From positions 1 to 22,443 of the forward strand of contig DAOTVY010000039.1 of the NCBI GenBank assembly GCA_034436115.1: a stretch of DNA of 22,443 nucleotides, given 5' to 3'. Below, piece by piece: positions 4,080 through 6,417 of the stretch; positions within the stretch are counted from its first letter, which is position 1, and each line of letters begins with the position of its first letter. The position numbers were made by a program, and so were the translations under genes. The notes below the pieces were generated by a model. The model was not told where the DNA came from. It was given only the letters and a program-made list of their open reading frames with translations, and did not search any database. The DNA comes from Chloroflexia bacterium. GTDB taxonomy: Bacteria; Chloroflexota; Chloroflexia; DTKN01.

Positions 4080-5237
4080 ATGCCGGGAAAGGTTGCCATC
4101 GTAGGCGTCGGGTGGTATGGCTTCCGTTCCATCTCTCCGGAACTCTCCTACAAGGAGATCATGTACGAGGCTGCGGTGCGTGCCTATGCGGACGCGGGCA
4201 TCGACCCGCGTACCGACGTGGACAGCTTTGTCACGGTGGCCGAGGATTTTTCCGAGGGCACGAGCATTTTCGATGAGTATGTGCCCGATCAGCTTGGCGC
4301 GGTGTTGCGCCCAAACGTGACGATCCCTGGGGAGGGGCTACACGGCCTGATCACCGCCTACATGCAGCTTTGCACTGGCCGGTTTGACGTCGTGGTGGTC
4401 GAGGGACACTCGAAAGCGTCCAACATCCGGTACCCGGCACACATTCTTGCCTACGCGATGGACCCGGTCTACAACCGGCCCCTTCGTGTTCATCCCTGGT
4501 TTGTGGCGGGCCTGGAGATGCAGCGCTACCTGTACGAGACGGGGACTACCCTGGAGCAGTGTGCTCAGGTCGTGGTGAAGAACAAAGCCAATGCGCTCTT
4601 TAACCCACTGGCTGCCCATCCGGCCACCCTCACCGTGGACGACGTGCGCAACTCGGAACCGGTCGCTCAGCCGCTCACCCGGCTGGAAATTGCCCCCCCT
4701 GCCGATGGGTGCGTCGTGATGGTTCTTGCCTCGGAGGCGACCGCCCGCGCCCTTACGAAGCGACCGATCTGGATCTTGGGCGTGGGCTGGGCCAACGGTT
4801 CCTACAGCCTGGAACACCGCGACTGGGTCGAGCTAGACTACGTTCGACAAGCAGCTCAGATGGCCTACCGCACGGCCGGCATCCGTTACCCACGCGGCTC
4901 CCTGGATTTCCTCGAGGTCGACGACACGTTTGCCTACAAAGAGCTCCAGCACCTGGAAGCCATGGGGCTCTGTGGCCCCGGTGAGGCCGGCCGTCTGACT
5001 GAGGACGGCACCACCTCCCTCGAGGGCGACCTTCCCGTGAACCCCTCCGGCGGTAGCCTGGGGTGTGGCCATCTGTTGGACGCCTCTGGCCTGGCCCGAG
5101 CGCTGGAACTCGTGCTGCAGCTGCGCGAGGAGGCCGGTGCCCGACAGCTCCCGGATGTACACGTCGGAGCCGCCCTCTCCTGGCGGGGCATCCCAAGCAC
5201 CAGCGCCGCCGTGGTCATCCTCAGCAACGAGGATTGA
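4080..5237 (+). CDS. Thiolase-like protein, SCP-x/Ltp2-type, paralog 1; appears to lack the N-terminal nucleophilic Cys
   Basis: MPGKVAIVGVGWYGF... is a thiolase N-terminus. The C-terminal segment NPSGGSLGCGHLLDASG resembles the thiolase GG..G-H-P..G.SG signature. Where SCP-x thiolases carry ..AACASGG.., this protein has ..TIPGEGLHG.. ATG at 4080 with the SD GGAGGAGGG. The ORF-track start at 3984 is an RBS-less, Arg-rich extension. Confidence 0.85.
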   Translation: MPGKVAIVGVGWYGFRSISPELSYKEIMYEAAVRAYADAGIDPRTDVDSFVTVAEDFSEGTSIFDEYVPDQLGAVLRPNVTIPGEGLHGLITAYMQLCTGRFDVVVVEGHSKASNIRYPAHILAYAMDPVYNRPLRVHPWFVAGLEMQRYLYETGTTLEQCAQVVVKNKANALFNPLAAHPATLTVDDVRNSEPVAQPLTRLEIAPPADGCVVMVLASEATARALTKRPIWILGVGWANGSYSLEHRDWVELDYVRQAAQMAYRTAGIRYPRGSLDFLEVDDTFAYKELQHLEAMGLCGPGEAGRLTEDGTTSLEGDLPVNPSGGSLGCGHLLDASGLARALELVLQLREEAGARQLPDVHVGAALSWRGIPSTSAAVVILSNED

Positions 5238-5250
5238 AAGGAGGAAGGCG

Positions 5251-6417
5251 ATGAGAATGCGTCGCGTTGCCCTGGTCGGCGCGGGGATGACCCGGTTCGT
5301 GCGACGGGCCCTCGAGACCGCGGACGAACTGTCGTGGCAGGCCAGCAAGATGGCGCTCGATTCCTGCGGCTTGACGCTGGAGGACATCGATGCCGTGGCC
5401 TTTGGTACGGCGCCGGATGCCTTCGACGGCGTGCACATGAACGGCGAATACTGCGCTCCGGGCTGCGGTGCTTTCGGTAAACCGTTCATCCGCTGCTACG
5501 TCGGCGGAGGTACCGGTGTGATGGCCGTGATCCACGGCTGGTATCACGTGGCGAGCGGCCTCTTTGACACTTGCCTGGTCGTGTGCGAGGAAAAGATGTC
5601 CTCCTGCCAGCCGCACCCGCAGGGGGCTTTCCTGACCATCTTTGACCACACGCTTGAGCGGCCGCTCGGGCCGAACCTGCTGTGGATCTTTGCCATGGAA
5701 ATGAATGCCTATATGTCGCGCTACGGGCTCAGCAAGCGCGATATCGCCCTGGTCACGGTGAAGAACCGGGCGAACGCCAAAGATCACCCATGCGCCCTCC
5801 TCGGAGAGGAGATCACCGTCGAGGAAGTGCTAAACTCCGAGGTCATGGCCTGGCCGGTGCAACGGCTCGACGTCAGCCCGATCTCCGACGGCGCGGTAGC
5901 GGTTGTCTTGGCTGCGGAGCCGGTCGCCCACCGCGTGACCGAAAGGCCCGTGTGGATCGAAGGGGTCGGCTGGAGCCTGGAGACAGCGTATTGGACGAAC
6001 CGAGACCTTTCCTATCCGTTGCAGGTCGAGCAGGCCGCGCGTATGGCCTACGAGATGGCGGGGATCACCGAGCCGCGCAAGCAGATCCACATCGTCGAAC
6101 CGTACGACCCGTTCGACTATAAGGAGCTGCATCACCTGGAAGGGTTGCTCCTGGCGGACAAGGGCAAGGCCCCGGAGATGACCGCGCTGGGCATCACTCG
6201 CCGGGACGGGGACCTCCCCGTTTGTCCCTCCGGAGGGCTTCTCGGGGTAGGCAACCCGATCGCTGCGGCCGGCCTGATGAAGGTCGCCGAGATCTTCTGG
6301 CAGCTCCGCGGGGAGGCCGGGGCACGTCAGGTGCCCGGGAACCCGAAGCGCGGGCTGGCGCAGGCCTGGGGAGACCTCATGCAGGTCGGCACCGTGGTCA
6401 TCTTGGGCGTGGCCTGA
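5251..6417 (+). CDS. Thiolase-like protein, SCP-x-type, paralog 2; Cys-containing but with Asn in place of the signature His
   Basis: MRMRRVALVGAGMTRF.. is a thiolase N-terminus. FIRCYVGGGTG...VASGLFDTCLVVCEEKM fits the SCP-x thiolase block (C.SGG ... vasG..D..Lv.G.EKM). The C-terminal CPSGGLLGVGNPIAAAGL has N where thiolases have GHP. ATG at 5251, with the SD AAGGAGGAAGG 13 nt after the paralog-1 stop. Confidence 0.85.
   Translation: MRMRRVALVGAGMTRFVRRALETADELSWQASKMALDSCGLTLEDIDAVAFGTAPDAFDGVHMNGEYCAPGCGAFGKPFIRCYVGGGTGVMAVIHGWYHVASGLFDTCLVVCEEKMSSCQPHPQGAFLTIFDHTLERPLGPNLLWIFAMEMNAYMSRYGLSKRDIALVTVKNRANAKDHPCALLGEEITVEEVLNSEVMAWPVQRLDVSPISDGAVAVVLAAEPVAHRVTERPVWIEGVGWSLETAYWTNRDLSYPLQVEQAARMAYEMAGITEPRKQIHIVEPYDPFDYKELHHLEGLLLADKGKAPEMTALGITRRDGDLPVCPSGGLLGVGNPIAAAGLMKVAEIFWQLRGEAGARQVPGNPKRGLAQAWGDLMQVGTVVILGVA

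Follow-up and report, generated by a model that had tools for sequence, protein, structure and literature searches.

A conserved module of two cysteine-less thiolase-fold paralogs and two DUF35 proteins in a Chloroflexia bacterium: a candidate acyl-CoA carbon-carbon lyase

In complexes that contain DUF35 proteins, a competent thiolase combines three elements: a nucleophilic Cys, an HDxF motif that provides the oxyanion His (and, in HDCF types, an acid/base Cys), and the His of a GHx motif (PMC12960953, PMC12329534). Departures from this scheme have been described. Haloarchaeal ketothiolases use a Ser-His-His triad (reviewed in PMC7137286). The retro-aldolase Sal has Gly at the nucleophile position (Gly89), a catalytic-base Tyr302 within Y302DCY, an essential Cys304, and Gln352; its relative Ltp2 has Tyr294 in a YDHF motif and a catalytic-acid Tyr344 (PMC12329534). 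The same study equates these YDCY/YDHF motifs with the HDCF of SCP2-thiolases, and proposes an aldolase role for TbSLP, the SCP2-thiolase-like protein of Trypanosoma brucei. Here we analyze a 22,443-nucleotide stretch of DNA (‘the window’) from a Chloroflexia bacterium (GenBank assembly GCA_034436115.1, contig DAOTVY010000039.1, positions 1 to 22,443 of the forward strand), in which two SCP-x-type thiolase-fold paralogs, P1 and P2, and two DUF35 proteins, DUF35a and DUF35b, are encoded in that order by a four-gene operon (4080-7410). Both paralogs depart from the thiolase scheme, each in a different way. A first-pass annotation of this DNA had drawn attention to P1 and P2, that is, to half of the operon.

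Active-site columns of P1 and P2

P1 (4080..5237, + strand) is a 385-residue protein, and P2 (5251..6417, +) has 388 residues; they share 36% identity, in agreement with their first-pass description as adjacent thiolase paralogs. The SCP-x thiolase fold is recognized from Pfam matches (Thiolase_N/Thiolase_C_1, with Thiolase_C_1 only in the case of P1) and, for P2, also from an AlphaFold2 (AF2) model with template-modelling (TM) scores of 0.8-0.9; the fold of P1 was judged from its sequence only. P2 belongs to NCBIfam PRK06065 (622 bits versus a cut-off of 455). The best NCBIfam match of P1 is PRK06066, at 463 bits, which is under the cut-off of 516 and so leaves P1 outside that family. Both models are named merely ‘thiolase domain-containing protein’. 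Next come DUF35a (6428..6949, +; 173 residues; CPQC...CEHC), a Cys4 zinc-ribbon and OB-fold protein (Pfam zf-ChsH2 and OB_ChsH2_C), and DUF35b (6946..7410, +; 154 residues; CPAC...CERC), a second protein of this kind by Pfam; the start of DUF35b overlaps the stop of DUF35a, and the two are 41% identical. Both the P1/P2 and the DUF35a/DUF35b pairs look like old tandem duplications. P1 and P2 are complete and co-directional, with strong Shine-Dalgarno sites (that of P1 is GGAGGAGGG, ahead of the ATG), and the same two gene calls are made on four metagenome contigs that bear an identical P1. Scans of the window with Rfam, and of 3500-7700 for promoters and terminators, gave no match.

We assigned catalytic columns from HMMER alignments to solved structures and from an independent MAFFT alignment; the two agree. 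Conservation was read from 194 P1 and 201 P2 orthologs. In P1, the segment NVTIP^GEGLHG (4314..4346, +) carries a three-residue deletion, marked by the caret, and the resulting gap (NVTIP---GEGLHG) sits exactly on the ‘AAC’ of the Methanothermococcus thiolase that includes the nucleophile (6ESQ). The earlier observation that P1 has no nucleophilic Cys is therefore borne out; moreover, all 194 orthologs share the deletion, as do remote P1-like representatives with as little as ~32% identity. The HDxF motif is replaced by DDTF (4920..4931, +), in which Asp281 is found in 191 of the orthologs and Asp282 in every one. The Gly-His at the GHx position (5067..5072, +) is the sole canonical element that P1 keeps: as had been noticed, the His of GCGHLL is retained, and it aligns with the GHx His in both alignments, yet this residue is His in just 168 of the 194 orthologs and Asp, Asn, Ser, Tyr or Cys in the other 26 (Asp in the ortholog from Marsarchaeota). 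Judging from this variation, the retained His is not essential. A cluster-representative library yielded many further P1-like proteins that keep the deletion and in which every ‘catalytic’ column varies. Because the nucleophile loop is deleted and the ‘catalytic’ positions are variable, P1 is probably a degenerate partner, that is, a non-catalytic structural subunit or pseudo-enzyme that would make the dimer asymmetric.

The picture for P2 is one of invariance. Its RCYVGGGTG block (5491..5517, +) contains a Cys, which the first-pass annotation took for the retained nucleophile, but the alignments refute this: the residue at the nucleophile column is Gly86 (5506-5508), and Cys82 (5494-5496) precedes it by four residues. 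Gly is found at that column in 201 of 201 orthologs, and position 82 is variable (Gly in 80, Cys in 78, Ser in 41). The HDxF motif, the loss of which in both paralogs had been overlooked, is YDPF in P2 (6103..6114, +), as placed by alignment with the HDxF of five thiolases, and the GHP motif is GNP (6250..6258, +); both replacements occur in all 201 orthologs. The reported replacement of the GHP His by Asn stands up fully: the Asn of GVGNP aligns with the GHP His of the zebrafish and T. brucei SCP2-thiolases, the P. furiosus thiolase, BbsB and ST0096. Tyr285, Asp286, Pro287, Phe288, Asn335 and Pro336 are each invariant across the 201 orthologs. A smaller set of nine orthologs from both domains of life shares Gly85/86/89, His122, Gln124, Arg251-Asp252, Tyr285-Asp286, Phe288 and Asn335-Pro336-Ile337, and P2-like cluster representatives conform to the pattern xGGx[ST]G / Y[DNA][PA]F / [GSAT]NP. 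Invariant replacement residues of this sort fit a remodelled active site and not a decayed one.

P2 is also highly conserved overall. Its identity is 74-92% across 80 genome loci (defined below) and 60-66% between Bacteria and Archaea, and one archaeal ortholog is 66% identical over 385 residues with zero gaps. Mean identity to the window's proteins is 79% for P2, 65% for P1, 60% for DUF35a and 51% for DUF35b. The P2 identity between Bacteria and Archaea, together with the invariant replacements, points to an important and specific reaction. The AF2 model of P2 has a predicted local distance difference test (pLDDT) value of 86.5, and its best fold match is ST0096, with the P. furiosus thiolase and the 6ET9 thiolase also among the top ones; TM scores are 0.80-0.90 for all candidates (0.8-0.9 for 4YZO, 7YVY and 6ET9) and do not discriminate aldolases from thiolases. 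The best PDB match of P1 is ST0096 too. We also observed that residues 122-140 of P2 (~5614-5670), which include an invariant PHPQ (His122, Gln124), form the sole long low-confidence loop of the model (pLDDT <50).

Because both paralogs are without the nucleophilic Cys of the CxS loop and the His/Cys of HDxF, and P2 is also without the GHx His, neither is able, as far as the aligned residues tell, to act as a thiolase by the known mechanism. Nor does either have the Ser-His-His arrangement of the haloarchaeal ketothiolases: there is no Ser at the nucleophile column of either protein, and the three MAFFT columns read deletion/Asp/His in P1 and Gly/Tyr/Asn in P2. Across the orthologs, these substitutions behave as fixed family characters, and are not due to chance or sequencing error. 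Identity of P1 or P2 as an HMG-CoA synthase (HMGCS; HMG for 3-hydroxy-3-methylglutaryl) was considered and ruled out: there is no Pfam or NCBIfam match to HMGCS, and its Cys/Glu/His residues are missing.

Conservation and genomic context of the four-gene unit

The module is widespread: more than 590 bacterial species have it in their genomes, and it recurs in several archaeal phyla. A search that took one genome for each species returned at least 591 loci with a P2 relative; the neighbourhood counts given here refer to the best 80 of these (individual loci carry L numbers), most of which belong to Anaerolineae, Thermoflexia and Chloroflexia, the rest including WOR-3 and single metagenome-assembled genomes (MAGs) of a deltaproteobacterium, a member of Actinomycetota and Symbiobacterium thermophilum. 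The order P1-P2-DUF35a-DUF35b is seen in ~75 of the 80, and is kept in essentially all that are not cut by a contig end; DUF35a lies directly 3′ of P2 in 74, and DUF35b is present in 71. An identical four-gene order recurs on contigs from Asgard archaea (Jordarchaeaceae), Thermoprotei-like archaea, Marsarchaeota and Nitrososphaerales. Wherever the context was inspected, the order is a P1-like gene, then a P2-like gene and one or more DUF35 genes.

Some lineages carry genes inside the unit. In one lineage of Anaerolineales (L087/L088), three small genes (Rv0078B-like, DUF6036-like and PDDEXK_3) lie between P1 and P2 (11153-12449), and P2 and DUF35a are parted by a 96-residue open reading frame (ORF). 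A second lineage (L085/L086) has genes for an asparaginase and PsiE between P2 and the two DUF35 genes. Insertions are thus tolerated by the operon, with none of its four genes lost. Locus L091 (3075-9155) contains two divergent copies of a P1-like/P2-like pair with one DUF35 each, a three-gene version of the module, and these pairs adjoin a MaoC hydratase, an acyl-CoA dehydrogenase, a beta-keto acid cleavage enzyme (BKACE) and a CoA ligase.

The genes that accompany the module point to short- or branched-chain acyl-CoA catabolism. A short-chain acyl-CoA dehydrogenase is encoded directly downstream in 24 of the 80 loci, and is found near the module in L054, L091, L093, L096-98 and, together with the electron-transfer flavoprotein (ETF) alpha and beta subunits, in L094/L099. 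Crotonase (enoyl-CoA) or MaoC hydratases occur in L089, L090 and L091, and a 3-hydroxybutyryl-CoA dehydrogenase (Hbd) adjoins the module in L054 and L072. In the former, a deltaproteobacterial MAG (3645-10105), the genes for an acyl-CoA mutase (large and B12-binding subunits) lie on one side of the module and that for its MeaB GTPase on the other, with genes for an adenosyltransferase, a short-chain acyl-CoA dehydrogenase, a TetR regulator and Hbd upstream; the module also follows mutase genes in L009. An aldehyde:ferredoxin oxidoreductase is encoded directly upstream in the Asgard locus L090, and close by in four Chloroflexota loci. In Marsarchaeota (L096-98), genes for the E2/E3 components of a 2-oxoacid dehydrogenase lie upstream.

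Two loci from Nitrososphaerales are particularly instructive (L094, 7863-15344; L099, 6863-14344). Here an acetoacetate-CoA ligase gene (947 bits versus a cut-off of 639) is inserted between P2 and DUF35a, and adjacent to the operon are a divergent acyl-CoA dehydrogenase-ETFbeta-ETFalpha cluster, a branched-chain aminotransferase (IlvE) and a canonical acetyl-CoA C-acetyltransferase. The presence of this Cys thiolase beside the module suggests that the module's own reaction is something other than thiolysis.

Other neighbours were set aside. Pairs of CoA-transferase genes in ~11 Anaerolineae loci had SCOT (3-oxoacid) identity as a candidate, which we rejected: they are of the glutaconate-CoA-transferase/AibAB family and so provide no direct support for acetoacetate activation. 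The fabD/fabG genes that are upstream in 18-22 loci were rejected as partners, being 4-5 kb off, beyond asp23-nusB-tatAC, and are taken as Anaerolineae synteny. Within the window, sucC (811-2016), sucD (2692-3573) and a ferredoxin gene were likewise rejected as parts of the system, since they are adjacent to it just in the closest relatives and are absent from the other 80 loci. That ferredoxin (3615-3917, +; 100 residues, 2x[4Fe-4S]), which lies between sucD and P1, is like the delta subunit of 2-oxoglutarate:ferredoxin oxidoreductase (70 bits, under the cut-off of 125); no KorA or KorB is encoded within the window.

The window has some further features of its own. An unusual insertion in sucCD is a 233-residue ORF (2010-2711, +) that overlaps both sucC and sucD; it has no Pfam match, contains an HExxH motif (HELAHLLDH), and has been assigned as a gene on two related contigs, L001 and L003; like sucC and sucD, it is not conserved with the module. 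On the other side of the module, a 1186-residue membrane-anchored protein (7465-11025, -) combines three to four GAF domains with a SpoIIE/PP2C phosphatase domain, and the gene that follows (10991-11863, -) encodes a fusion of an RsbW-like kinase and a STAS domain; the two are a partner-switching signalling pair that is conserved beside the module in the closest relatives only. For a 1061-residue ORF (15733-18918, -), numerous transmembrane segments are predicted in the N-terminal half, and Pfam gives no match; AT skew is strong in this region (0.24-0.27 at 17001-19000).

Candidate reaction and competing explanations

A retro-aldolase of this fold has no nucleophilic Cys and a catalytic-base Tyr in a YDxF/Y motif. 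P2 shows this combination, with Gly86 and Tyr285; P1 does not, having Asp281 in place of the Tyr. In P1, P2, 7YVY, BbsB and 4YZO, 50 residues separate the start of the HDxF motif from the GHx column, which equals the 302-to-352 and 294-to-344 distances of Sal and Ltp2 and places Tyr285 and Asn335 of P2 on the corresponding Sal/Ltp2 columns. The mapping to Ltp2 Tyr344 is based on motif spacing only; that to Sal is based on spacing and on the range of the HMMER alignment between P2 and the Sal chain (9MYR), which agrees with this register once a single constant offset for the tag is allowed. Because P2 is the most constrained subunit and its invariant residues reproduce the retro-aldolase active-site pattern, we infer that it is probably the catalytic subunit.

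We tentatively favour, with a confidence just short of even, the hypothesis that the module is a heterotetrameric β-hydroxyacyl-CoA lyase of short/branched acyl-CoA catabolism. A P1/P2 heterodimer would be clamped by DUF35a and DUF35b, one on each side, in a 1:1:1:1 stoichiometry; this arrangement is suggested because the α2-β2 complexes solved for BbsAB, Ltp2-ChsH2 and Sal-Shy have one DUF35 per subunit, and indeed all solved relatives bind one DUF35 per thiolase-fold subunit. P2 would bind a β-hydroxyacyl-CoA, and Tyr285 would take the proton from the β-hydroxyl group; the Cα-Cβ bond would then be cleaved with no covalent enzyme intermediate. The acyl-CoA enolate would be held in an oxyanion hole by Asn335 and backbone amides before being protonated, and a carbonyl compound would be set free together with acetyl- (or propionyl-) CoA. 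Our most specific guess at the reaction is cleavage of HMG-CoA to acetoacetate and acetyl-CoA, or of a related C4-C6 3-hydroxyacyl-CoA; HMG-CoA is singled out because the archaeal operon contains an acetoacetate-CoA ligase. An acetaldehyde- or acetone-releasing cleavage of C4-C5 hydroxyacyl-CoAs would fit the link to the oxidoreductase. We hold a shade more tentatively to a broader formulation: the four subunits (PRK06066/PRK06065 and two DUF35 proteins) may constitute an ancient enzyme of central acyl-CoA C-C cleavage that uses the thiolase fold without Cys/His, examples being a metal-independent lyase for HMG-CoA or short 3-hydroxyacyl-CoAs in branched-chain amino-acid catabolism, or a thiolase without a covalent acyl-enzyme.

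This proposal modifies that of the first-pass annotation, which had envisaged an obligate hetero-complex of subfunctionalised paralogs with one catalytic and one scaffold or aldolase-like subunit. The hetero-complex is supported by a gene order that is conserved even in archaea and by the different rates at which the subunits evolve, and a division into catalytic and scaffold subunits is plausible. The assignment of roles is not supported: there is no thiolytic subunit, and the aldolase-like, catalytic one would be P2 and not P1. For the other idea, that thiolytic and aldol chemistries coexist in one assembly, we find no support, as neither paralog has the thiolase residues.

Several points weigh against a lyase. 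The main weakness is the missing general acid: the second catalytic residue, essential in both characterized retro-aldolases, has no counterpart in P2, where Sal Cys304 corresponds to Pro287 and Ltp2 Tyr344 to Asn335. The loop at residues 122-140 may act as a lid or sit between subunits, and is a candidate source of this acid. P2 scores 55-74 bits against Sal/Ltp2 but 130-147 bits against true archaeal thiolases, ST0096 and BbsB, which are also nearer to it in overall fold; P2 lies, by these comparisons, outside the Sal/Ltp2 clades, the likeness being restricted to the active site, and the resemblance of Tyr285 may be convergent. As to context, most loci have no hydratase, and the Anaerolineae neighbourhoods are largely inherited synteny and not independent events. 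Moreover, Hbd beside the module fits a 3-ketoacyl-CoA substrate, as does the acetoacetyl-CoA made by the ligase of L094/L099.

These last associations are what a non-canonical 3-ketoacyl-CoA thiolase would lead one to expect, an explanation that we consider rather unlikely. CoA would attack (2-methyl)acetoacetyl-CoA directly in a ternary complex, with no acyl-enzyme; Tyr285 and Asn335 would steady the enolate, and the two large subunits or the two DUF35 proteins would give two CoA sites. The L054 operon, with its Hbd, short-chain acyl-CoA dehydrogenase, acyl-CoA mutase and MeaB, is the expected place for a thiolase, Hbd adjoins the module in L072 as well, and the operon is shared with acetoacetate-CoA ligase in L094/L099. 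There are precedents for thiolases without Cys, namely ST0096 and the haloarchaeal BktB/PhaA with an OB-fold beta subunit (Ser-His-His; PMC7137286). On the other hand, the nucleophile column of P2 holds Gly and not Ser, both His and the acid/base Cys are gone, and L094/L099 already encode a canonical Cys thiolase alongside. Furthermore, we know of no thiolase that lacks a covalent nucleophile. Both subunits have lost every canonical catalytic residue, which might instead signify a non-catalytic assembly that binds or channels acyl-CoAs, or scaffolds other β-oxidation enzymes as DUF35 does for the fatty-acid synthase complex of Sulfolobus; scaffolding by DUF35 proteins is known, and dead thiolase-superfamily subunits exist (e.g., PhlA, the P. 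fluorescens HMGS unit). We view this as distinctly unlikely: known dead subunits accompany a live one, and a P2 that is 66% identical and gapless between Bacteria and Archaea, with its replacement residues invariant in all 201 orthologs, is hard to reconcile with it.

It is quite improbable, in our estimation, that the module decarboxylates (methyl)malonyl-CoA or another β-carboxy/β-keto acyl-CoA by means of an enolate-stabilising half-site, as in KSQ/CLF-type subunits. TbSLP, which has YDCF, slowly decarboxylates malonyl-CoA, but Sal, with a site similar to that of P2, has no such activity (PMC12329534). The position of the module between mutase subunits and MeaB in L054, and after mutase genes in L009, would suit a decarboxylase, as would the succinyl-CoA synthetase upstream in the window and the glutaconate-CoA-transferase-family pairs that adjoin the module in Anaerolineae; however, the sucCD and mutase links are each limited to one or two lineages, and the acyl-CoA dehydrogenase, hydratase, acetoacetate-ligase and 2-oxoacid-dehydrogenase contexts would be left unexplained. 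Finally, the model with which the first-pass annotation began, in which P2 is a working Cys thiolase that tolerates the His-to-Asn change and P1 a Cys-less scaffold or aldolase, now seems scarcely credible. It drew on the Cys in FIRCYVGGGTG, and the surrounding block does align well with thiolases; yet that Cys is four residues off a column that is invariantly Gly, its position is Gly or Ser in 121 of the 201 orthologs, all of which are at least 74% identical, and the His and Cys of HDxF are gone as well.

Significance and comparison with known systems

Complexes of thiolase-fold and DUF35 proteins are an established type, and NCBIfam already has models, as yet unnamed, for both protein families. 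We found no paper in the literature on the full combination seen here, which joins two diverged Cys-less SCP-x paralogs and two DUF35 paralogs with a Gly/Tyr/Asn site without the known aldolase acid and with conservation across domains, and no characterization of the heteromeric module or of PDB entry 7YVY. Database names for proteins of the P1/P2 type are ‘acetyl-CoA acetyltransferase’, a widespread misannotation, or ‘thiolase domain-containing protein’; as a consequence, they will be scored as thiolases when the metabolism of Chloroflexota, Thaumarchaeota, Marsarchaeota and Asgard archaea is reconstructed. The module is a concrete candidate for a new acyl-CoA C-C lyase, and knowledge of its reaction would correct many annotations. 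Should it prove to be a lyase, or a thiolase free of an acyl-enzyme, it would represent a new catalytic solution in the thiolase superfamily and a missing step in the metabolism of Chloroflexota and archaea; a cofactor-free C-C lyase/aldolase for small acyl-CoAs, useful for biocatalysis, could follow.

Known systems each share part of this design. BbsAB, the benzoylsuccinyl-CoA thiolase (7PXP), is an α2-β2 complex of an SCP-x-type protein and a DUF35 zinc-finger protein, and BbsB is a top match of both P1 and P2; however, BbsB is a true thiolase with Cys, HDAF and GHP, and there is one subunit type of each kind. The thiolase-HMGCS-DUF35 complex has two distinct thiolase-superfamily subunits held by DUF35, and is among the closest relatives of P1/P2 in sequence and fold. 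Its thiolase keeps the Cys, HDCF and GHx; the other subunit, an HMGCS that carries a Cys/Glu/His set of its own, is not an SCP-x paralog, and there is one DUF35 type. In the PhlABC/MucABC acyltransferases, a dead thiolase-superfamily subunit accompanies a live SCP-x-like subunit and a DUF35 protein, and all subunits are needed; in contrast to the module, PhlC keeps Cys88/His347, PhlA is HMGCS-like and not an SCP-x paralog, and the dodecameric enzyme serves secondary metabolism.

Thiolase folds without a Cys nucleophile are also known from ST0096 of Sulfolobus tokodaii (4YZO) and from haloarchaeal BktB/PhaA, the latter needing an OB-fold subunit. These proteins keep a Ser and both His (ST0096 has Ser/His/His at the catalytic columns in MAFFT), in contrast to the deletion of P1 and the Gly/Tyr/Asn of P2. 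TbSLP (5AB4-7) shares the thiolase fold and a Tyr-Asp-x-Phe motif; it differs in that the Cys of its YDCF is kept, it has no DUF35 partner, and it is a eukaryotic homodimer.

The active site of P2 is most reminiscent of Sal-Shy(DUF35) (9MYR) and Ltp2-ChsH2(DUF35) (6OK1): these have the SCP-x thiolase fold, no nucleophilic Cys, and a DUF35 partner that is obligatory there. They also have Tyr as the first residue of the HDxF equivalent and a non-His residue at the GHx column, so that Gly89/Tyr302/Gln352 of Sal parallel Gly86/Tyr285/Asn335 of P2, and they act after an acyl-CoA dehydrogenase and a hydratase. Sal and Ltp2 are, however, retro-aldolases of steroid side chains, whereas the module has no steroid genes nearby and its hosts are Chloroflexota and archaea; sequence similarity to them is low as well (55-90 bits). 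Furthermore, they are homodimers with a DUF35 domain fused to a MaoC hydratase, in contrast to the two diverged large subunits and two free-standing DUF35 proteins described here. The module would offer a natural case in which a homodimer-plus-clamp enzyme has turned into an asymmetric four-gene complex, with one remodelled and one degenerate active site.

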